Source: an uncultured Bacilli bacterium (GTDB lineage: Bacteria > Bacillota_I > Bacilli_A > RF39 > UBA660). From it: a stretch of 57,918 bases of DNA. The translations under genes were made by a program, and so were the position numbers. Location: assembly GCA_947628485.1 (NCBI GenBank), contig CANRAA010000001.1:1-57918 (forward strand), read 5' to 3'. The notes under the pieces are model-generated. The model ran no database searches. It worked only from the letters and a program-made list of their open reading frames with translations, and was not told the DNA's origin. Below, in pieces: positions 96 through 9,839 of the stretch (positions within the stretch are counted from its first letter, which is position 1; every line of letters begins with the position of its first letter).

Positions 96-857
96 CTAAT
101 CTACTTTTTGAGAAATGGTACAAGCATCAGTTGCAGTTACTTCTATAGTTAAATTTAATGTTTTACCTGCAAGATCGTGACCAGAAGTTGATTGATCGGT
201 GGCTGCACTATTAACTAAGTACATAGTTGCATTAATTGTTTCTTCTAAAGGACCGCTTTCTCCTTGACCTTCTAATTTAATTGATCCATTAAATTCTTTA
301 GATTTTGAACCACTATCTCCAGTAAGATCTTTTAAATTAGTTTGGACATTACCACTTCCTTCTCCTAAGCCAGCACCTTCAATAGTTAAATTAATATCGC
401 CAGCTTGCAATTGGTCTAACATATCTCCTGTAGCTGTTACTTTAACTTTATAACCACAAGTATACTCATCATTTTCGTCGCCGCCAGTAACAGTAAATTT
501 TGCTAATTCATGATTAGAACCAGCTGGAGCGCTATGACTTTCTCCATCAGTTTCTTTTAGATATTTTCCACCAGTAGTTGAAGATGTTGAATGACTTACA
601 TCAGATTTATCCATAGCATAATAGTATTCATCTTTAGCTGGTTGCTTCATATCTTCTGCTGTAACACTTAGTTCTAATGTTTTTCCACCACCTGACAATG
701 ATACTAATCCAACACTAGATGATTTTACTTCAGCTGTAGTATTTTTTGCGTTTCCACTTACACTTAAACTAAAATACGCAAACGTTGCTCCTACTACTGC
801 TACTAGTAACGTTGCTACTGCTATCACTGTTAGTAACATTGTATTTTTCTTTTCCAT
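96..857 (-). CDS. Secreted protein with SipW-dependent-type (TasA/camelysin-like) signal peptide
   Basis: ORF 96..1046 trimmed to the ATG at 857, which follows a GGGAGGG Shine-Dalgarno (SD). N-terminus MEKKNTMLLTVIAVATLLVAVVGATFAYFS fits the basic/hydrophobic/G-x-T-F-A-x-F pattern of SipW-cognate signals. Mature part is Ser/Thr/Gly-rich. GC is visibly higher than in neighbouring genes. Confidence 0.6.
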   Translation of the reverse strand: MEKKNTMLLTVIAVATLLVAVVGATFAYFSLSVSGNAKNTTAEVKSSSVGLVSLSGGGKTLELSVTAEDMKQPAKDEYYYAMDKSDVSHSTSSTTGGKYLKETDGESHSAPAGSNHELAKFTVTGGDENDEYTCGYKVKVTATGDMLDQLQAGDINLTIEGAGLGEGSGNVQTNLKDLTGDSGSKSKEFNGSIKLEGQGESGPLEETINATMYLVNSAATDQSTSGHDLAGKTLNLTIEVTATDACTISQKVD

Positions 858-960
858 TCCTTTTTCCCTCCCTTCTCTCCTCTTTCTCTCTTTCGAACTA
901 AAGTTTTTTCCCTTTCTCTTCCCCCCCACCCCGCCATCGGAGGGGGGCCTCCTATTGAAA
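858..960 (-). promoter_or_regulatory. Purine/G-rich 5' leader of the 96..857 gene
   Basis: Minus strand reads AGGAGGCCCCCCTCCGATGGCGGGGTGGGGGGGAAGAGAAAGGGAAAAAAC...GAAAGAGAGAAAGAGGAGAGAAGGGAGGGAAAAAGGA-ATG. It contains a GGAGG-CCCC-CCTCC hairpin (940..953), G-runs and several SD-like purine blocks. This is a clear composition outlier in an AT-rich window. Confidence 0.4.
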
Positions 961-1029
961 TCTATACTGTCATGCATAATATTATGTTTTACTAGCATAA
1001 TATTAATGTGTAAAAAAAATACATTTACA

Positions 1030-1058
1030 TTGAAAAAAAAATACAAAGGAGATATAAT
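1030..1058 (+). promoter_or_regulatory. Sigma-A type promoter for ATPase/Toprim module 1
   Basis: TTGAAA (1030..1035), 17 bp spacer, TATAAT (1053..1058). GGGAG SD at 1065..1069 and ATG at 1078. Confidence 0.55.
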
Positions 1059-1077
1059 ATATATGGGAGTGAATATT

Positions 1078-2181
1078 ATGATAAAAAAATTTAGTGTTAA
1101 AAACTTTAAAAATTTTAAAGATAAAGTGGTTTTAGATTTTTCAAAAATTAGAGATTATGAATTCAATCAAAGTTTAATAAAAAATAATTTAGTAAATAAA
1201 ATGTTAATATATGGTCCAAATAACTCAGGAAAAAGTAATTTAGGGGCAGCGATTATGGACATTACAACTCATCTTACTGATAATAATGGAACAGATAATA
1301 TTTTATATGCTTATTATTTAAATGGTGATTATGTTGATGATGTAGTAGAATTCAATTATGAATTTCTATTTGGAAACAAAGAAATAAATTATTTTTATAA
1401 AAAAGATCCCCAATCAAAACTTTTATCTGAAGAATTATATGAAAATGATAAATTACTTTTTAAATATAACTATATTACTAATAAATTTGATAATAATATA
1501 AAAGAAGCTCAAACAATTGATATTTCTAAAAGAACTAATAAAGAAATGTCAGTGTTAAAATTTATATATAATAATACTTTATATTGGCCTGTAGATAGTT
1601 CAGTTAAAATATTTATGGAATTTGTTAACAATATGTTATGGTTTAGAAGTTTAAAATCGAACGAATTTATGGGAGTAATGGCCAATAACGAGAATATGAA
1701 TGATTTCATTATTAATAATAGATTATTAACTTCATTTGAAAAATTTTTAAAAGATTGTGGACAAAATTATAATTTATGTGAAATTAGTGATATGGGGAAA
1801 AAAATAATTGGAGTTAAATATAAAAATTATAAAGCAAGATTTGACCTAGTTGCCTCAACTGGAACTAAATCATTATGGCTATTTTTCTATTGGATGAACA
1901 GAACAAATAATATTTCTTTTATTTATTTAGATGAATTTGATGCTTTTTATCATTATGAATTATCTGCCTATATTCTAAAATACTTAAATAACAGGACAGA
2001 ATTTCAATCAGTTTTAACTTCTCATAATACATATCTAATAACTAATGAGTTAATGAGACCAGATTGTTATTGCATTTTAAAAAATGGTAAAATTAGTAGT
2101 TTTGCAGATAGTACTCAAAAGACTATTAGGCAAGCTCACAATTTAGAAAAAATGATGCTTGGAGGGGAATTTGAAAAGTAA
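1078..2181 (+). CDS. ABC/AAA_15-21-type ATPase, defence-module partner 1
   Basis: ORF 955..2181 trimmed to ATG 1078 because the promoter lies inside the longer ORF. Starts MIKKFSVKNFKNFKD. Walker A GPNNSGKSN, Walker B FIYLDEFD, H-loop-like TSHN. Confidence 0.8.
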   Translation: MIKKFSVKNFKNFKDKVVLDFSKIRDYEFNQSLIKNNLVNKMLIYGPNNSGKSNLGAAIMDITTHLTDNNGTDNILYAYYLNGDYVDDVVEFNYEFLFGNKEINYFYKKDPQSKLLSEELYENDKLLFKYNYITNKFDNNIKEAQTIDISKRTNKEMSVLKFIYNNTLYWPVDSSVKIFMEFVNNMLWFRSLKSNEFMGVMANNENMNDFIINNRLLTSFEKFLKDCGQNYNLCEISDMGKKIIGVKYKNYKARFDLVASTGTKSLWLFFYWMNRTNNISFIYLDEFDAFYHYELSAYILKYLNNRTEFQSVLTSHNTYLITNELMRPDCYCILKNGKISSFADSTQKTIRQAHNLEKMMLGGEFEK

Positions 2182-2935
2182 AATTCTTTTGATTGTTGAA
2201 GGTGAAAAAGATGAGATTAGAATATTAGGAAGTGAAAGCCATGGTTTATTATCTCTAATAGGAGGAGATTACGAAATTGTTCCTTTTGCTAATCCTATTT
2301 ATGAATTATATGATGCATACGTTAATGGTGAGTATGATGATATAGTATCCTATTTGAGAATTAATAAAGGTTTAGAAATTGATTCTGATATATTGTCTAA
2401 AAATGCTTTTAGTGCCATATATTTAGTATTTGATTATGAGCCACAGGACCATAAATATTCTGATAGAAAAATAAAAGAATTATTGTCGATATTTAATAAC
2501 GAAACAGAATTAGGAAAACTTTACATTAATTACCCTATGGTAGAGGCATATTATCATTTAAAATCTTTGCCTGATTATGAATATAATGATAGAGTTGTAT
2601 CTTTAGAAAATTTAAATGGAAAAAATTATAAAAAATTAGTTAACACATCTACATGCTTACGTAAAAATAATATAACAAATATAAATTTATGTTATATTAT
2701 TATGCAAAATTATATTAAAGCTCAAAGAATAACTAATTCTAATGGTCAATTAATTGATCATAATAAAATATTAAATTCTCAACTAAGTTTAAAAAAAGAA
2801 AGAAACGAAATATATGTTTTAAGTACCTTTCCTTTTATAGCAATAGATTATAACTATGAAAAAACAATGGAAAAAATAAAATCAAAATTAAAAGCTAATT
2901 ATATAAAATTAGAAAATATAAAACAACCTAATTAA
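2159..2935 (+). CDS. Toprim/RloB-like (DUF4435-like) protein, partner of the 1078..2181 ATPase
   Basis: N-terminal ILLIVEGEKDE (Toprim-type Glu) and a later acidic cluster LVFDYEPQD. Overlaps the ATPase gene by 23 nt. There is no in-frame ATG before the VEGEKDE motif, only TTG at 2159 or 2171, so the start is uncertain. Confidence 0.65.
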   Translation: MEGNLKSKILLIVEGEKDEIRILGSESHGLLSLIGGDYEIVPFANPIYELYDAYVNGEYDDIVSYLRINKGLEIDSDILSKNAFSAIYLVFDYEPQDHKYSDRKIKELLSIFNNETELGKLYINYPMVEAYYHLKSLPDYEYNDRVVSLENLNGKNYKKLVNTSTCLRKNNITNINLCYIIMQNYIKAQRITNSNGQLIDHNKILNSQLSLKKERNEIYVLSTFPFIAIDYNYEKTMEKIKSKLKANYIKLENIKQPN

Positions 2936-2961
2936 TACTATTTAAATATTTAGAAAAAAAT

Positions 2962-2990
2962 AAAAGTGTTTTATTTATCACTTTTATTTT
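2962..2990 (+). terminator. Rho-independent terminator after module 1
   Basis: AAAAGTG (2962..2968) pairs with CACTTTT (2979..2985) and is followed by a T-rich run. Overlaps the 3' end of convergent der. Confidence 0.5.
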
Positions 2991-4275
2991 TAAATTGTAA
3001 GATTATTGGGGTTCCTTCTAAATCAAAGGCCTCTCTTAATTTGTTTTCTAAATATCTTTCATAACTAAAATGCACTAAATTTTTACTATTAACATTAAAA
3101 GTAAATTTCGGAGGTTTACTATCTGTTTGACTTACAAAATAAATTTTTAATCTTTTTCCTTTATAAGATGGAGGTTCATGTAAAGATACGGCATCCGTTA
3201 TCACATCATTTAAAAGACTCGTTTTAATAACTTTCCGATTATTTTCATAAGCTTTAATTACTTCAGGCATTAAAGTATGTAATCTTTTTTTGGTTAAAGC
3301 CGATGTAAAGACAAAATTAATATAAGGAACAAATTTAAAATAAACTTTTAATTCTTGTTTCCATCTTTTAATATCTTCATTAGGATCTTTTACCGTATCC
3401 CATTTATTAACACAAATAACTATTCCTTTACCAGCAGAAATAGCATAAGATAAAATATGTTTATCATGTTCAATGATTCCTTCTTTAGCGTCAATAACTA
3501 AAACACAGACATCACTTCTATCAATAGCCTTCATACTACGCATTAAACTATATTTTTCAATATTTTCATAAATGCGTCCTTTTTTCCGCATACCCGCTGT
3601 ATCAATAACAATATAATCTTTTTTATCATAGGTAAGCCTAGTATCTACAGAGTCTCTAGTAGTTCCCGCGACATCACTTACAATAACTCTTTCTTCATTT
3701 AAAAGGGCATTAATTAAAGAACTTTTACCAACATTGGGTCTTCCGATAAAACAAAATTTAACAATATCTTCTTCCTCTTCTTCTTTAACACTTATATCTT
3801 TAGTAAGAATATTAAGTAGTTCTTTAAAACCTAAATTATGTTCCGCAGAAACTCCTAAAACCATTTCAAAACCTAATTCATAATAAGCATAAATTAAATC
3901 TTTTCTTTTTTCATTATCAATTTTATTAACTAAAACGATGATTTCTTTACCACTTTTTTTAAGCATATTACGAATTTTTTTGTCAGCATCCGTTATTTCA
4001 TCTAAGCCATCAACCACAAATAAAATGGTATCGGCTTCCGTTATAGCCAGTTCCGCTTGCATTAAAATATCTTTATTAAAATCATCATCTTCACCATGAA
4101 CACCCCCAGTATCAATTAAACTAAATTTTTTATTTTGATAATTTACAACCCCATAAATACGGTCTCTTGTAATTCCCGGTTCACTTAAAATAATCGCCTT
4201 TTTTTCATTTATAAGCCGATTAAATATACTACTTTTTCCGACATTAGGTTTTCCAATTAAACAAACCGTTTTCAT
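2971..4275 (-). CDS. der: Ribosome-biogenesis GTPase Der (EngA)
   Basis: Two tandem GTPase domains with P-loops GKPNVGKSS and GRPNVGKSS plus DTGG/DTAG and NKID/NKWD motifs, then a C-terminal KH-like tail. 434 aa. Confidence 0.95.
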   Translation of the reverse strand: MKTVCLIGKPNVGKSSIFNRLINEKKAIILSEPGITRDRIYGVVNYQNKKFSLIDTGGVHGEDDDFNKDILMQAELAITEADTILFVVDGLDEITDADKKIRNMLKKSGKEIIVLVNKIDNEKRKDLIYAYYELGFEMVLGVSAEHNLGFKELLNILTKDISVKEEEEEDIVKFCFIGRPNVGKSSLINALLNEERVIVSDVAGTTRDSVDTRLTYDKKDYIVIDTAGMRKKGRIYENIEKYSLMRSMKAIDRSDVCVLVIDAKEGIIEHDKHILSYAISAGKGIVICVNKWDTVKDPNEDIKRWKQELKVYFKFVPYINFVFTSALTKKRLHTLMPEVIKAYENNRKVIKTSLLNDVITDAVSLHEPPSYKGKRLKIYFVSQTDSKPPKFTFNVNSKNLVHFSYERYLENKLREAFDLEGTPIILQFKNKSDK

Positions 4276-4285
4276 AAATCACCTT

Positions 4286-4720
4286 CTACTCACAAACAAG
4301 TTCATTTGAAGTATCTATTTTAGCATAAATTCTTTTATTTTTATAATAAATTATAACTTCTTCTAAATCTAAAAACTTTTCTTTATCTGTTGGATCCACT
4401 ATACATCCACCTTCATTATTTTCTTCACTTAAACAATTATTTTCATTATCTTTAGATAAATATTCGGGAACTAAATCACTTACGAAAAAACTTTTACAAG
4501 CATATTCTTTGTAATGTTTATCACTATTAATAATTGAGCCTTTAATATCTTCTCCAAAAAGAATAGCGGCCTCTTCCATAAGTTCAATCTTTTTTTCCAG
4601 CATATTTTTTTGAATTAAATGACTAATTCCACTTATAGATGGAACTGCAATAGCTGTAATGACCCCTAAAAGCACTATAACTCCTAATAATTCAATTAAT
4701 GTAAATCCCTTATTATTCAT
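4286..4720 (-). CDS. Type IV pilin/pseudopilin-like protein with prepilin N-terminal cleavage/methylation motif
   Basis: MNNKGFTLIELLGVIVLLGVITAIAVP is the G/FTLIE class III signal plus hydrophobic helix. Gaps of 9-10 nt to engB and der indicate one operon. Confidence 0.8.
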   Translation of the reverse strand: MNNKGFTLIELLGVIVLLGVITAIAVPSISGISHLIQKNMLEKKIELMEEAAILFGEDIKGSIINSDKHYKEYACKSFFVSDLVPEYLSKDNENNCLSEENNEGGCIVDPTDKEKFLDLEEVIIYYKNKRIYAKIDTSNELVCE

Positions 4721-4729
4721 CCTAACCTC

Positions 4730-5314
4730 TTAACTTAAATAACTAGATATAATATCTAATACTTCGTTTCTTCCTTTTTTCGTAATGGTTGACCAAGGAA
4801 TAAAACTATTATCATCTGTTAATTTCAATGTTTCTTTAATTATTTTATCTTGTTTTACGCGGCCATTCTTAGTTACTTTATCATATTTAGTAGCTACAAT
4901 AGTAACTGGTAAATTATAATAATTTAAAAAATTATACATTAAAATATCATCTTCCGTTGGTTTATGTCTATAATCAATTAGTAAAAAAACGTGTTTTAAA
5001 TTTTCTCTAGAAGCAATATAATCTTCAATCATAATGCCAAATTTCTTTTGTCTATCTTTAGAGACACTCGCAAATCCATAACCGGGAACATCTACTAAAT
5101 AAAAATTATCATTAACTAGATAAAAATTTAAAGTCTGAGTTTTTCCTGGTTTAGAAGAAGTCCTCGCAAAATTCTTTCTTTCAATTAAAGTATTAATAAA
5201 ACTACTTTTACCAACATTACTTCTTCCTAAAAGTAAAAACTCTTGTTTTTTATCAATTGGATATTGACTAATTCTTATAGCCATAATTGGTTCTGCTACT
5301 TTATCAATTTGCAT
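4730..5314 (-). CDS. engB: Ribosome-biogenesis GTPase EngB (YsxC/YihA)
   Basis: GRSNVGKSSFIN P-loop, DVPGYG and TKYDK motifs. The ORF opens with GTG at 5326. ATG at 5314 follows GGTGA with about 6 nt spacing and is preferred. ATG 5320 is also possible. Confidence 0.9.
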   Translation of the reverse strand: MQIDKVAEPIMAIRISQYPIDKKQEFLLLGRSNVGKSSFINTLIERKNFARTSSKPGKTQTLNFYLVNDNFYLVDVPGYGFASVSKDRQKKFGIMIEDYIASRENLKHVFLLIDYRHKPTEDDILMYNFLNYYNLPVTIVATKYDKVTKNGRVKQDKIIKETLKLTDDNSFIPWSTITKKGRNEVLDIISSYLS

Positions 5315-5371
5315 ACTCATCACCACACTTAAATTATATATTAAATTATGGTTATTTGCAAATTTTTAATA

Positions 5372-5404
5372 TTAAACAAAAACAACCGCCTTAATAATAA
5401 GGCA
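5372..5404 (-). terminator. Rho-independent terminator after module 2
   Basis: Minus strand has GCCTTA-TTAT-TAAGGC (5388..5403) followed by GGTTGTTTTTGTTT. Confidence 0.5.
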
Positions 5405-5465
5405 GTCATAAGATCTTCTCGGTAAACACATTCTTTGGTGTTTATCAATAATATTATACTATAAT

Positions 5466-6257
5466 TTAACTATCTTTAATAGTTATAATATTTAAATCTA
5501 ATAACATTATGGAAATTAAAGATAATAAATTATAATATTTTCTTTTAGTATAAATGTCTTCTTCTTTATTAAAAATATCTAAAGATGTTTTAGAAAAATC
5601 ATCTAAATCATATTCAGTTATACCTAAATCTAATAAAGACTTAAACATTATTTTTGTAGCATTTAAAATCGTGTGCTTATCTATTTTATTTATTTTATAA
5701 CCTTGACTTTTAATATAATTTTTTAAATTTTTCTCTTTTAAAAATAGATTATCTTTAACAAAATTAGAAATTAGATATGATTCTAAAGATGGATAACTAA
5801 GTAAAAGTAATCCATTCATTTCTTCATCTTTATTTTCTAAAGAATTACCTAAGATACCTAATAAATTTTTAGTAATATCTTGAGGATTAGAGTTATTATC
5901 TCTATCCCACAAAAAATATACATTAATATTTTTAGTATCAATACCATATTCTTCATATAATCTTTTATAAATTTCATTAAGATATTCTTTATCTTTTTTA
6001 ATTGAGGACAAATTAGAATTTTTAGCATTTATAACTATTACTCGGGAATTTTCATTTCCTTTCATAACAAATTCATCATAATTTTTAAAATTTTTTTGAT
6101 TACGACTTTTCTCTATATAATTATAATGTAAGACATCTCTAAAGATATGTTTTAATAACTCAAACTCATCTTTGGCTCCTTCTACTACAATTAATACCGT
6201 ACCAATATTTCTTTTAAAGTTAATCTTTAAAGATTTTGTTGTATCTAGGCATTCCAT
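5466..6257 (-). CDS. Toprim/RloB-like (DUF4435-like) protein, partner of the 6220..7344 ATPase
   Basis: VLIVVEGAKDE Toprim-type Glu motif and a downstream FLWDRDNN (DxD-like) motif. ATG 6257 has a GGAG SD and ATG 6269 is the alternative. Overlaps the ATPase gene by 38-50 nt. Confidence 0.7.
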   Translation of the reverse strand: MECLDTTKSLKINFKRNIGTVLIVVEGAKDEFELLKHIFRDVLHYNYIEKSRNQKNFKNYDEFVMKGNENSRVIVINAKNSNLSSIKKDKEYLNEIYKRLYEEYGIDTKNINVYFLWDRDNNSNPQDITKNLLGILGNSLENKDEEMNGLLLLSYPSLESYLISNFVKDNLFLKEKNLKNYIKSQGYKINKIDKHTILNATKIMFKSLLDLGITEYDLDDFSKTSLDIFNKEEDIYTKRKYYNLLSLISIMLLDLNIITIKDS

Positions 6258-7344
6258 TAAATACTCCATTTAAATACATCTTTTCAATGTTTTGAGATTC
6301 TCTAGGCATACTAGAAGAAAATCTTTCAACTAAGGTACCTTTTTTAGAATCAAAATAAACAGAATAAATTTGGTCTGGTCTTAATAAAGTGTTGTTTAAA
6401 ACATTTGTGGAATGAGTTGTAAAAAACATTTGGGAATTTTTAGCATAATGAAAGAAATATTTTATTAAACATTCTTCTAATTCATTATGAAAACCACTGC
6501 TAAATTCATCAATAATTAACATACATTCATTATTTACAGCGTATAAGAATGATGGAATTAATTCAATAAGAGTTCTATTTCCTGTTGATTCTAAGTTTTC
6601 AGGAATACTTACATTAGTACCTTTTTTATTAAAAGAAATAAGAATATTATTTTCATTTACATTCGAATCTGTAAATTCTATATTTTGGTTATAATTTATT
6701 CTATCTAAAAAATCGTTTATCTCTTTTGCCGAATTATTTTTTAAATATTTACGAATTGATAAATTATTATCGGAATATGCCCGAATATTTCTGTTATAAC
6801 AATTAATATAAATAGAATTCTTCATATATGAATACCATTTATTTAAGATTTCATCACCATAAAAATTAGTATCGAAATATATTCTTCTTAAAAATAATAA
6901 TTTATTGGAAAGATTATTAAATATTTTTTCTTCATTTAAATTGAATTTAGCAGTATTACCTAATCTTTCTAATATAACTAGACTATCAAATGTTAGTTTT
7001 TCGGAAACAATACCTTCTTTATCTAATTCAATTAAATAAATAATTTCTTTTCCTTCTTCCATAAATGTATATTCTATTTTATAAGTTGGTTTTGGTGTAT
7101 AAAAGCATAATTTAGATATTAAATCGATTTCATTATTAGAAAATAATAAATCAAGTAAAAGAGTAAGGCTTTTTAAAATATTTGTCTTTCCTGAAGCGTT
7201 TTCTCCTACTAATAAGCAACCTTTTAATATCTTATTACTACCAACATTTTCGCTCTCTAAAAACTTATAGTTAGAAGCGGTAAAATCAATCTCCGTTGGA
7301 CTTATAAATGTTGTATAATTATCTAATTTTATTTTCTTTAACAT
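6220..7344 (-). CDS. ABC/AAA_15-21-type ATPase, defence-module partner 2
   Basis: MLKKIKLDNYTTF start, Walker A GENASGKTN, Walker B MLIIDEFSSG, H-loop-like TTHS. GGAGG SD 7 nt upstream of the ATG. Confidence 0.8.
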   Translation of the reverse strand: MLKKIKLDNYTTFISPTEIDFTASNYKFLESENVGSNKILKGCLLVGENASGKTNILKSLTLLLDLLFSNNEIDLISKLCFYTPKPTYKIEYTFMEEGKEIIYLIELDKEGIVSEKLTFDSLVILERLGNTAKFNLNEEKIFNNLSNKLLFLRRIYFDTNFYGDEILNKWYSYMKNSIYINCYNRNIRAYSDNNLSIRKYLKNNSAKEINDFLDRINYNQNIEFTDSNVNENNILISFNKKGTNVSIPENLESTGNRTLIELIPSFLYAVNNECMLIIDEFSSGFHNELEECLIKYFFHYAKNSQMFFTTHSTNVLNNTLLRPDQIYSVYFDSKKGTLVERFSSSMPRESQNIEKMYLNGVFNGMPRYNKIFKD

Positions 7345-7362
7345 AAAATTTCCTCCATTAAT

Positions 7363-7391
7363 ATTATATATTAAATGTAAAAAATATACAA
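7363..7391 (-). promoter_or_regulatory. Sigma-A type promoter for module 2
   Basis: Minus strand has TTGTAT (7386..7391), 17 bp spacer, TATAAT (7363..7368). Confidence 0.45.
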
Positions 7392-7482
7392 CATTTTTTA
7401 AATAAATGTAATTTTTTTACACTATAATATTATGTTGTAATTATTTAAAAGTTATGTTAAAGTATTTAACCAAGGTGATTTT

Positions 7483-8565
7483 ATGGCTAAATATGTTTGG
7501 ACAAGCAAAGATTTTAAAAGATGTTTAAGAAGTTTATATGAAGCAAAAAGTAAAGAAACAAATTCCGAATTACTAAAGGTAATCGATAATGATATTTTTT
7601 TACTTAAAAGTTATATTGATTTTGATTTTGATGAACATAAGCCCAAAGATGATTATTTAAAAATGTATCGTTTAGCCAAAAGCTATCTTTATCCATTATC
7701 ATATCTTTGGGATGACTTAACGGATTTTAATGATTTGGCAAATGGCATCTTTGTTTATCCCAACACTCATTTACAAAGAATTAATTTTACTAAAAATGAT
7801 TTAGTTACCTTAACCCATGATTTTTATAAATCTTTGGGAGGCAATATATATGAGTCTTTTAAAAAGAACTTCCAAAATATAGATAATCATTTAAGTTTTC
7901 AAAAATATAAAGAAAGATATGATTCTAGAGCTTTTACTATTCCGATTAGTTATTTAGATGAATACTTCGTTAAAATATATCAAAGTAAAAACATTACCGA
8001 TTTAACTAGTATGGTACATGAATATGGACATGTGGTGGCCATTAGCACTAATTACAAATACAATATTGATAACTACTTTAGTGAAATAATACCTCTTTTT
8101 ATGGAACTATTAGTCTTAGATTACTACTATAATTTAACTAAAGATAAAACGGTTTATTTATATGCCATTGGGTGTTTTAACAAAAAAGTTGACCAAGGTT
8201 ATAGTCTAACGGATTTAATAAATATTATGAAAAATGAAAAAGAAAAATTTAAAAATTGTTATGAACTTTGGAATATGACGCAAAAGTTGGCTATTAGTGA
8301 AGATGATTTTAACTTAAGTATGGAAGATATAAATGGGGATGCTTATATCTATTTACCAGCTTATATGATAGCCATTGAACTTTATAAATCTTATAAACTA
8401 GATTCAGAGAAAACTTTAGATATTATAGGTAAAATATTAAAGTTTAAGTTAGATAATTTAAAAGAAGATTATCAAACTCTTTCTTCTTTAGGAATTAAAC
8501 CTAATTATAATTTAGAAGAGTATGAAGATGATTTAAAACAAAAAGAATTGGCTTTGAGACGCTAA
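7483..8565 (+). CDS. Putative HExxH zinc metallopeptidase (oligoendopeptidase-like)
   Basis: 360-aa ORF with MVHEYGHVVAI (HExxH) in a helical context. Family not recognised further. Confidence 0.5.
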   Translation: MAKYVWTSKDFKRCLRSLYEAKSKETNSELLKVIDNDIFLLKSYIDFDFDEHKPKDDYLKMYRLAKSYLYPLSYLWDDLTDFNDLANGIFVYPNTHLQRINFTKNDLVTLTHDFYKSLGGNIYESFKKNFQNIDNHLSFQKYKERYDSRAFTIPISYLDEYFVKIYQSKNITDLTSMVHEYGHVVAISTNYKYNIDNYFSEIIPLFMELLVLDYYYNLTKDKTVYLYAIGCFNKKVDQGYSLTDLINIMKNEKEKFKNCYELWNMTQKLAISEDDFNLSMEDINGDAYIYLPAYMIAIELYKSYKLDSEKTLDIIGKILKFKLDNLKEDYQTLSSLGIKPNYNLEEYEDDLKQKELALRR

Positions 8566-9839
8566 TTCTTTTCTTTATTATTAAGTATTTTACTAACAGC
8601 ACTCATGATGGCTATTTTACCGTAAGAATAGGTAAGAGAACCTTGTTCATATAAAATGTAGGGTTCAACAAGAGGTCCATCACAAGATATTTCAATGGAA
8701 GAACCTTGCGTAAATGAACCTGAAGCCATAATTATTTCATTATCATAACCCGGCATCGGAGATGGAATAGGAGTACTATCTGCATCAATGGCACTTGCAC
8801 TTTGAATACCTTCCGCATATTTAATTAAATCATCTTTATTTCCAAAAGTTATCGATAAAACAATATCAGCGTGTTCTTCATTATATTTAGGATTAACTTT
8901 GTATCCTAAATCTTCCAGTAATTTAGCAGTTAAAAGTGATATTTTTAAACTACTGGCTACAACATAAGGAGCATGATATAAACCCATTAAAAATTCTTTA
9001 TTAATACCTAAAGTAGGACCTACTTCTCTACCTTCTCCGGGAACAGTTAATCTTTCGGCACATAAATTAACTAAAGATTCTTTCCCCGCAATATAACCGC
9101 CATTTGGAGCAATTCCGCCCCCTAAGTTTTTAATTAAAGACCCTACCATAATATCGGCTCCTACTTCCGTTGGCGTTTTATCTTCGACAAATTCACAATA
9201 ACAATTATCAACCATAATAATAGTTTCAGGAGATATTTCTTTAATTAGTTTACAAATACTATCGACCTTTTCAATTGTTATACTTTTTCTTTCCGAATAA
9301 CCTCTACTTCTTTGAATTTCAATTAATTTAACTTTATTATTTTTTAAATATTCTTTTATCTTATCATAATCAAAATCATCATTTACTAAATCAATTTGAT
9401 CATATTTAATGCCAAAGGAAATTAAAGAACTGGCATTTTCTTTAATCCCAATTACTTCATGTAAGGTGTCATAAGGTAAACCTGTAATACTAAGCATTAA
9501 ATCATTTGGTCTTAAAAGCCCAAATAAACAAACTGTTAAAGCATGAGAACCTGAAATAAAATCTCTTCTTACTAAAGCATCTTCACTACCTAGGACACTA
9601 GCAAAAACTTTTTCTATTTGACTTCTGCCTAGATCATTATAACCATAACCCGTTGTACTATTAAAAGAGGTTTCACTAATCCCGGCTTTATTAAAAGAAG
9701 ATAAAACTTTTAAACTATTTAATTCTTCTTGTTTATCTATTTTCGCAAATTCATCCTTAAGTTCTTCTTCAATTTGTAAAACTTTCTTATAGACATCTTC
9801 TCTTATATTATAAAATTCTAAATATTTATTCATTTCCAT
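8562..9839 (-). CDS. YnbB/aluminium-resistance family PLP enzyme (methionine gamma-lyase family protein)
   Basis: N-terminal region and the SLIKNLGGGIAP PLP-lysine motif are typical of this family. 425 aa. Confidence 0.8.
   Translation of the reverse strand: MEMNKYLEFYNIREDVYKKVLQIEEELKDEFAKIDKQEELNSLKVLSSFNKAGISETSFNSTTGYGYNDLGRSQIEKVFASVLGSEDALVRRDFISGSHALTVCLFGLLRPNDLMLSITGLPYDTLHEVIGIKENASSLISFGIKYDQIDLVNDDFDYDKIKEYLKNNKVKLIEIQRSRGYSERKSITIEKVDSICKLIKEISPETIIMVDNCYCEFVEDKTPTEVGADIMVGSLIKNLGGGIAPNGGYIAGKESLVNLCAERLTVPGEGREVGPTLGINKEFLMGLYHAPYVVASSLKISLLTAKLLEDLGYKVNPKYNEEHADIVLSITFGNKDDLIKYAEGIQSASAIDADSTPIPSPMPGYDNEIIMASGSFTQGSSIEISCDGPLVEPYILYEQGSLTYSYGKIAIMSAVSKILNNKEKN

Follow-up and report, generated by a model that had tools for sequence, protein, structure and literature searches.

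The closest described relatives of the system studied here combine an ABC-type ATPase with a Toprim nuclease. A 2026 review groups AbiL with PARIS under the type 'Rad50/SMC-type ABC ATPase + TOPRIM/OLD nuclease' (PMC13064643). PARIS (AriA/AriB), with an ABC ATPase as sensor and a separate Toprim effector, is the best-understood model and involves sequestration, followed by trigger-induced release and tRNA cleavage (PMC11464382, PMC13064643); according to the same review, a mechanism is still lacking for AbiL, RloAB and similar pairs (PMC13064643). AbiL from Lactococcus lactis comprises two overlapping genes, AbiLi encoding a Rad50/SMC-like ABC ATPase and AbiLii a Toprim/OLD-like protein (PADLOC, PMC13064643), and in RloA/RloB (PF13707) an AAA_21 ATPase is encoded directly upstream of a small Toprim-like protein. 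OLD proteins and GajA from Gabija carry the same two activities fused in one polypeptide, and pairs of an AAA antitoxin and a Toprim_OLD toxin have been validated as toxin-antitoxin (TA) modules by NetFlax (PMC10440598). A further pair, PDC-M12, corresponds to cassette CAS_00072, named in the supplement of bioRxiv 10.1101/2024.01.29.577857, and is one of the 145 'guilt-by-embedding' PDC candidates proposed in that study, all of them cassettes found within loci for BREX, DISARM or type I restriction-modification (RM). Here, we analyzed a 57,918-nt stretch of DNA from an uncultured Bacilli bacterium (contig CANRAA010000001.1, positions 1 to 57,918; hereafter the window), in which two modules of this kind, module 1 (1078-2935, plus strand) and module 2 (5466-7344, minus strand), flank the genes engB, a type IV pilin-like gene and der.

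The explanation we favor, with a probability of about 0.72 for the whole, is that the modules are two independently acquired mobile cassettes, each encoding an ATPase and a stand-alone Toprim nuclease, that would act in defence by abortive infection and would be autoregulated via a palindromic box upstream of their promoters. The host genome is a metagenome-assembled genome of 1.3 Mb (98 contigs, ~90% complete, 26% GC), and DNA from the window is also contained in rabbit gut metagenomes. The junctions between the modules and the core genes are crossed without mismatch by Logan contigs of public runs (2136-3071, 5213-6261 and 7306-8702), where the run behind the spanning contigs could itself be the source sample of the window. 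Both modules were also present in public contigs of two studies, with contig breaks at ~2967 and ~5349-5382 that coincide with the two junctions, an observation that is supportive only, the contigs being fragmented.

Domain composition and family assignment

The open reading frames (ORFs) in the first 7.5 kb of the window were all present at the coordinates reported in the original prediction, which had been made from the sequence alone and had described each module as an ATPase with a small partner. Each module comprises an ABC-type ATPase that passes the Pfam AAA_21 model and an overlapping partner of ~254-263 amino acids (aa). All the ATPase motifs quoted at that time were recovered, i.e. 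Walker A (GPNNSGKSN in module 1 and GENASGKTN in module 2), Walker B (LDEFD and IDEFS) and the H-loop (TSHN and TTHS), and both proteins have in addition an S-T-G-x-(K/R)-(S/T)-L signature upstream of Walker B. With a cut-off of 27 bits, AAA_21 scored 48.9 bits (1.3e-12) for the module 1 ATPase and 63.0 bits (6.6e-17) for that of module 2, the latter also matching AAA_15 (2.2e-10).

When compared to the hidden Markov models (HMMs) of PADLOC, the module 1 ATPase matched PDC-M12A (PDLC04426) at 2.9e-118, with residues 1-366 aligned to profile positions 1-368 of 369, and its partner matched PDC-M12B (PDLC04430) at 2.9e-50, with residues 5-241 covering positions 6-247 of the 251 in the profile. 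Module 1 shares with PDC-M12 both HMMs over their full length, the gene order and the overlap, with no structural difference, and is on these matches assigned to this candidate family; the original PDC-M12 cassettes are embedded in other defence systems, whereas module 1 is not. The module 2 ATPase matched AbiLi (PDLC02335) at 8.2e-48, a model to which the module 1 ATPase also aligned (7e-38). In contrast to the AbiL pair, the module 2 partner matched AbiLii (PDLC02337) only weakly (4e-4, 19 bits, profile positions 25-75 of 170 only), and the module 1 partner gave no match to the AbiLii HMM. Module 2 is thus classified, from its profile matches, as AbiL-like, with an AbiLi-type ATPase and a partner outside the current AbiLii, RloB and DUF4435 models. 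A generic AriA-labelled PADLOC model (PDLC02980) matched the ATPases weakly (1e-16 to 1e-19), and a search of NCBIfam returned nothing useful for the module proteins.

The AbiL-, RloAB- or PARIS-type pair logic that had been put forward for the modules is borne out by these assignments, and both appear to be further examples of an already known ABC ATPase + Toprim kind, with a putative anti-phage function. Judged by size and gene composition, neither module is PARIS, OLD or Gabija. AriA of PARIS is a 55 kDa protein, whereas the module ATPases are ~43 kDa (367 and 374 aa); the module partners are without Pfam DUF4435, and AriB was not among their top structural matches. In OLD and GajA the two activities reside in one polypeptide, whereas the modules encode them in two overlapping ORFs, and GajA furthermore requires the GajB helicase, while no helicase gene is found near the modules.

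The partners as remote Toprim proteins

The partners had been suggested to carry a Toprim-like signature, and this was corroborated by the conservation within their families and by profile comparison. Both have the N-terminal motif (I/V)VEGxKDE and, further along, an acidic motif (module 1, FDYE; module 2, WDRD), and the motif residues are invariant or nearly so in a 39-sequence alignment of each family. In the module 2 partner family, (I/V)VEG is found with invariant E26 and E31, followed by an invariant W-D-R-D (D118, R119, D120) and LLLSYP..E. The module 1 partner family has VEG with E10 (at least 90% conserved) and E15, an invariant F-D88 followed by E/D at position 90, and YINYPMVE. In AlphaFold2 models of the partners (predicted local distance difference test scores of 84 and 90.6), the conserved E/ExxxxE, DxD and PxxE motifs are located at the C-terminal ends of successive beta-strands. 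The hallmarks of OLD-type Toprim domains are present in both, with the conserved Glu after beta-1 and the DxD (D88 and E/D90 in module 1) after beta-3. The two families are populous and lack annotation, comprising 158 and 240 clusters at 90% identity.

BLASTP aligned the two partners with each other at the VEG motif only, but their families are homologous when compared as profiles with hhalign (95.8%, E 6.7e-9). As a reference, an alignment of 21 genuine RloB proteins was used, all scoring above the Pfam cut-off and all from genomes of the same class, and to this the two partner families aligned with 96.2% (E 2.3e-9) and 92.0% (E 6.7e-7). Three motif blocks were in register with RloB (hhhEGxxxE, hhhDxD and (S/N)xPxxE), and reversed or column-shuffled control profiles reached at most 1.4% (E at least 0.036). 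Pfam, including RloB (PF13707) and DUF4435, gave no match for either window partner even at E <= 10, and across the partner families sub-threshold matches to Pfam RloB were seen in only 1/39 and 2/39 members.

A sequence-profile search of the PDB with the partners returned nothing, and Foldseek against the PDB was weak for the module 2 partner and non-significant for the module 1 partner; the informative structural searches were those with a Foldseek-independent structural aligner and against AFDB clusters. Among the top structural matches are Toprim regions from GajA and from the OLD proteins of Burkholderia and Thermus, which are the best-characterized neighbors of the partners, and neighbors among the AFDB clusters are annotated as DUF4435 (E 3e-9, TM 0.73), RloB, DUF3226 and 'abortive phage resistance protein'. 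The DUF4435 label is carried by two structural neighbors of the module 1 partner, which thus relates to the PARIS partner at the superfamily level only. Based on the profile comparisons and structural models, both partners are placed as remote members of the RloB/OLD Toprim superfamily, and not of Pfam RloB or DUF4435 as modelled, and neither was assigned to a non-Toprim family. By analogy they would be metal-dependent Toprim nucleases, and both families now have clear predicted catalytic residues that can be targeted by mutagenesis.

Start codons, transcription units and a shared palindromic box

The absence of an ATG start in the module 1 partner had been pointed out in the original prediction together with gene overlaps of 23 nt in module 1 and 38-50 nt in module 2. 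The non-ATG start stands, with TTG 2171 as the most likely start codon (the alternative being 2159), located 5 nt after a Shine-Dalgarno sequence (GGAGG, 2161-2165) that lies within the last codons of the ATPase gene; the overlap in module 1 is then 11 nt instead of 23. This start matches the gene call on record (254 aa) and the conserved family N-terminus MKSKILLIVEG. As the GGGAGGTGAAT-TTG junction, spacer included, is preserved in a module 1-type cassette of an unrelated metagenome, the TTG start is regarded as a conserved trait of the family; the homolog on an E. albertii plasmid has an ATG start. A TTG start would be consistent with translational coupling and with the nuclease being made in smaller amounts than the ATPase. 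For the module 2 partner the most likely start is ATG 6257 (263 aa on record), with an alternative start at 6269, giving an overlap of 38 nt that lies within the range first proposed.

The two modules are predicted to be transcription units separate from the engB block, based on the promoter-like site of module 1, the terminator-like hairpin after module 2 and the promoter-like element of engB itself (Table 1). In module 1, GGGAG (1065-1069) precedes the ATPase ATG at 1078. The hairpin between module 2 and engB, which would insulate the module from engB, is the sole terminator-like site found in the region 850-7600, and the engB promoter-like element is also found upstream of engB in congeners without module 2.

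Upstream of the promoter of both modules lies a palindromic box with the consensus TGTAA-N5-TTACA. The pattern TGTAAAAAAWWTACA, allowing up to one mismatch, has four matches in the 58-kb window, all of them in the two module promoters; the chance expectation is 0.59, and four matches were reached in 0/100 shuffles. Conservation across module 2-type cassettes at different loci (G000, G018 and metagenome L001) extends to the ~80 nt upstream of the ATPase, with the similarity in the alignment beginning at the first box, TGTAAAAAAATTACA. All 12 Firmicute-type cassettes examined, from both families and including GC-richer backgrounds, have the box at -54 to -81 from the ATG. Among module 1-type cassettes, it was found upstream of L004, L116, L117 and L118, as well as on the enterobacterial plasmid L096, there with 1 mismatch, and only one of 23 RloA-type ATPases was preceded by a (weak) match, the background being 0.145 per kb.

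As the box accompanies the cassette from one phylum to another, the simplest reading of this putative operator would be that it is bound by a cassette-encoded protein in a TA-like autoregulation, and transcription of the modules is probably autoregulated via the box. The compact native promoter and the conserved palindrome provide a direct handle on the regulation of the AbiL and PDC-M12 types. A more tentative proposal, which we consider possible and rather doubtful at present, is that one undescribed ATPase-Toprim subfamily, distinct from RloAB and PARIS, unites the PDC-M12-type and this AbiL-like type as its two branches, with a cassette-encoded box binder for TA-like autoregulation. The features defining such a subfamily would, equally tentatively, be an ATPase clade shared by both types, a Toprim partner of ~255-265 aa whose C-terminal region is helical, and a palindromic operator that is carried on the cassette and conserved from Firmicutes to an enterobacterial plasmid. 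If this were true, co-resident cassettes with near-identical boxes, such as the two in this genome, could cross-regulate or be released together.

Proposed mode of action

The proposed mechanism is drawn by analogy with PARIS (PMC11464382), OLD and the NetFlax AAA/Toprim_OLD pairs, and the nuclease activity, the ATPase-nuclease complex, the phage sensing, the abortive outcome and the operator function in it are inferred. The ATPase would be made first, with the partner translationally coupled to it through the 11- and 38-nt overlaps and, in module 1, the weak TTG start. The ATPase would keep the metal-dependent Toprim nuclease inactive and double as infection sensor, until a phage cue frees or activates the nuclease, which would then cut nucleic acid (DNA or tRNA) and abort the infection. 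Transcription would meanwhile be held under autoregulation via the TGTAA-N5-TTACA box.

Several points weigh against this explanation: neither partner is recognized by Pfam, the AbiLii match of the module 2 partner is marginal (19 bits), no phage, integrase or RM genes are found beside the modules in the window, and no DNA-binding domain that could account for the box was recognized in the cassette proteins. Moreover, PDC-M12 is a candidate only in the study that named it, and HEC-01, a related ATPase+Toprim candidate, showed no defence in the assays of the same work (bioRxiv 10.1101/2024.01.29.577857).

The strongest competing explanation, to which we give a minor though real share of the probability, is that the cassettes are primarily TA or addiction modules that stabilize their carrier DNA, with a Toprim toxin and an ATPase antitoxin and without a phage-specific trigger. 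A remote module 1-type pair is indeed the sole cargo of 4.4-kb ColE1/Rop mobilizable plasmids (and is also present on ~10-kb Vibrio phage-like elements), the validation of AAA/Toprim_OLD pairs by NetFlax fits the same picture, and a palindromic promoter box is typical of autoregulated TA operons. However, TA function and abortive defence are not exclusive, as PARIS behaves as both (PMC13064643); SoFic and PDC-S01 occupy the same gap in congeners, and PDC-M12 was defined by its nesting within defence loci.

It appears unlikely that the modules are RloAB-type accessories of an RM system that act only together with RM. The remote homology of the partners to RloB would fit such a role, genuine RloB genes in the class are also preceded by an AAA_21 ATPase, and PDC candidates are by definition embedded in RM, BREX or DISARM loci. 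However, the Pfam RloB model does not recognize the module partners, which exceed RloB by ~50 aa and have a C-terminal region that is helical. RloA/RloB is restriction-linked, whereas no RM genes were seen beside either module or the inspected cassette copies. The module ATPases furthermore fall outside the RloA-type group in the phylogenetic tree (see below), and the box is absent upstream of 22 of the 23 RloA-type ATPases.

Independent acquisition of the two modules

The window had been described as holding two strongly diverged copies, for which a phylogeny was proposed as a means to discriminate between independent acquisition and duplication. The two ATPases share only 25% identity, and we constructed a maximum-likelihood tree of 32 ATPases comprising the two from the window, cassette homologs from other genomes and one plasmid, and ATPases adjoining genuine RloB genes. 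The module 1-type and module 2-type ATPases formed separate clades, each with 100/100 support and ~5 substitutions per site apart, and sequences from other genomes were found in both. The ATPase closest to that of module 1 (82% identity) is encoded by a cassette of an unrelated metagenome (L004), whereas the nearest relatives of the module 2 ATPase are from G028 (95%), G034, G018 (~73%, at another locus) and another assembly. The two clades grouped together against the RloA-type ATPases (99/92, in a limited unrooted sample with a long-branch caveat), which suggests that the modules have an old common ancestor, and they are concluded from the tree to have been acquired separately. An exhaustive search with the module 2 ATPase matched 1,159 clusters at 50% identity at E <=1e-10, which is roughly the level of the match between the two module ATPases as estimated from bit scores.

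The distribution of the modules was surveyed in 36 congeneric species genomes, which are 62-95% complete, absences being scored as 'not found'. The module 2 partner was present in three of these, beside engB in G028 and G034 and on another contig in G018, where engB abuts its usual neighbor, and the module 1 partner was not found in any of the 36; the modules are thus not conserved core genes at this position. Cassettes occur in at least 8 unrelated contexts, including AP endonuclease/PBP, rpsP-khpA/dltA, ligA, Zip, SpaA and DUF4062. A tblastn search of plasmids, run in search of lactococcal AbiL, gave no close plasmid relative, all matches being at most 26% identical. Many small mobilizable enterobacterial ColE1-type plasmids of 4-6 kb (e.g. 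L096, E. albertii pEA04.6, 4.4 kb) carry a distant module 1-like pair as sole cargo, and related ATPase genes on small enterobacterial plasmids are sometimes annotated as 'abortive infection protein'.

The nearest relative, G028 (der 97% identical), is collinear with the window, at 95%, from 2954 to 8525 and carries module 2 only, the similarity ending at 2954, 19 nt past the stop codon of module 1. A clean insertion scar of module 1 relative to G028 was rejected, as the whole segment left of der differs and the neighboring gene is only 30% identical, indicating that the region has been replaced and not simply interrupted. No convincing flanking or terminal repeats were found for module 1. For module 2, a 21-nt direct repeat (5326-5346 and 7356-7376, 86% identical) was considered as a target-site duplication and dismissed, its 13-nt core not being enriched (6 observed, 5.5 expected); it probably reflects similar -10 and 5'-untranslated sequence. 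From these comparisons, both modules are taken to be horizontally mobile, self-contained cassettes that were inserted independently in the two variable gaps beside the GTPase genes.

Had the modules arisen in place, by an inverted duplication around the GTPase block in ancient times, and co-evolved with the block since, this would explain the mirror-image layout, the shared upstream box and the grouping of the ATPases against the RloA-type in the small tree. Such an origin is very improbable and already contradicted: the modules are found in 0/36 and 3/36 congeners, the collinearity with G028 breaks at 2954, the closest relatives of each module are in other genomes and contexts at 73-95% identity compared to 25% between the modules, and where the sites are empty in congeners, the gaps measure only ~35-110 nt.

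A conserved GTPase block with variable flanks

The genes between the modules were originally described as a tightly packed operon of two GTPases, in agreement with the gaps of 9-10 nt found within engB-pilin-der. The block is intact in 21/21 congeners examined. Beyond the genus, adjacency of engB and der was found only once, without the pilin, in G037, a genome from the same order but another family; in 11 further families of the class, each represented by a single genome, engB was not found within ±5 kb of der. The modules fill exactly the two gaps beside der and engB. In other congeners, the der-side gap holds PDC-S01 (AAA_14 + DUF4143; 6e-142; L110, 6529-7752) in G018, SoFic (Fic; 3e-91; L061, 7526-8605) in G006, and a sortase with an unknown gene in G001, while the cargo on the engB side includes a gene of the PD-(D/E)XK transposase family, a protein with a MuF_C domain, and glycosyltransferases. 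As the block is constant and the cargo differs across species, engB-pilin-der is a conserved anchor flanked by a variable hotspot that is rich in defence genes, most notably next to der. The der-side hotspot supports a defence role by position, and in gut Bacilli with small genomes the anchor can be used to mine further cargo.

That the modules have a housekeeping function connected with ribosome assembly or with the pilin, a reading with nothing but physical proximity to engB and der in its favor, can be set aside as contradicted by the distribution: they were not found in most congeners, in which engB-pilin-der is intact, and they occur as cassettes in unrelated contexts elsewhere. In addition, they form transcription units separate from engB, having a promoter of their own and a terminator ahead of it. 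The three points originally singled out as unusual, namely two diverged modules facing each other, the essential GTPases between them and the missing ATG, have ordinary explanations in independent insertions, an anchor with hotspot flanks, and a family-wide TTG start. What the present analysis adds is the hotspot, the coupling through a conserved TTG start and an operator-like box common to both modules.

On the der side of G009, a solo AbiLi-type ATPase (PADLOC 4e-95; L062, 8398-9606) was found one gene beyond an up316-family gene. It was rejected as a third full module, as no Toprim partner was found and the next gene encodes a membrane protein common to many congeners. This ATPase may have been orphaned or belong to a system that has degraded. 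In the tree, this ATPase grouped with RloA-type ATPases of the same family, which have RloB partners.

Table 1 Features of the two modules and the GTPase block in the window.
Feature	Position	Strand	Basis or remarks
Module 1 palindromic box TGTAAAAAAAATACA	1009..1023	+	Ends 6 nt before the -35 hexamer
Module 1 promoter-like site TTGAAA-17-TATAAT	1030..1058	+	Best in region, 11/12; consensus match only
Degenerate second copy of module 1 box	1031-1045	+	
Module 1 ABC-type ATPase, PDC-M12A type, 367 aa	1078..2181	+	PADLOC, Pfam
Module 1 partner, PDC-M12B type, predicted remote RloB/OLD-type Toprim-like, 254 aa from TTG 2171	2171..2935	+	
der	2971-4275	-	Pfam MMR_HSR1 + KH_dom-like
Type IV pilin-like (prepilin-type) gene, 144 aa	4286-4720	-	Pfam N_methyl
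engB	4730-5326	-	Pfam MMR_HSR1
engB promoter-like site TTGCAA-17-TATAAT	5333..5361	-	10/12
Intrinsic-terminator-like hairpin + T-run, between module 2 and engB	5382..5409	-	12-bp stem, then TTTTTGTTT
Module 2 partner, predicted remote RloB/OLD-type Toprim-like, 263 aa from ATG 6257	5466..6257	-	
Module 2 ABC-type ATPase, AbiLi type, 374 aa	6220..7344	-	PADLOC, Pfam
Module 2 promoter/operator block	7363..7421	-	Weak -35 TTGTAT 7391-7386, TATAAT 7368-7363, read from the upstream alignment and not called by a promoter tool
Module 2 second box TGTATATTTTTTACA	7390-7376	-	Overlaps -35 region and spacer
Module 2 first box TGTAAAAAAATTACA	7421-7407	-	

The gene directly downstream of der in most congeners belongs to a variable secreted-protein family that includes the 316-aa gene of the window (96-1046, minus strand). 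Of 22 genomes, 18 have members of this family beside der, often as 2-4 copies in tandem; they are only 30-44% identical to the copy in the window, in which the GC content rises to 35%. On the engB side, the usual neighbor is a divergently oriented homolog of the 360-aa gene at 7483-8565 (plus strand), which has no Pfam match and contains an HEYGH (HExxH-type) motif. Homologs of this gene flank engB in 13 of 22 genomes and are only 27-32% identical outside the closest relative. The prepilin-type gene is fast-diverging among the 21 congeners, with 42-98% aa identity compared to 74-97% for engB and der. In G034 (L047, about 2500-2720), the engB promoter and the terminator of module 2 have ~230 extra bases between them, in which a short ORF for a hydrophobic peptide could be read by eye.

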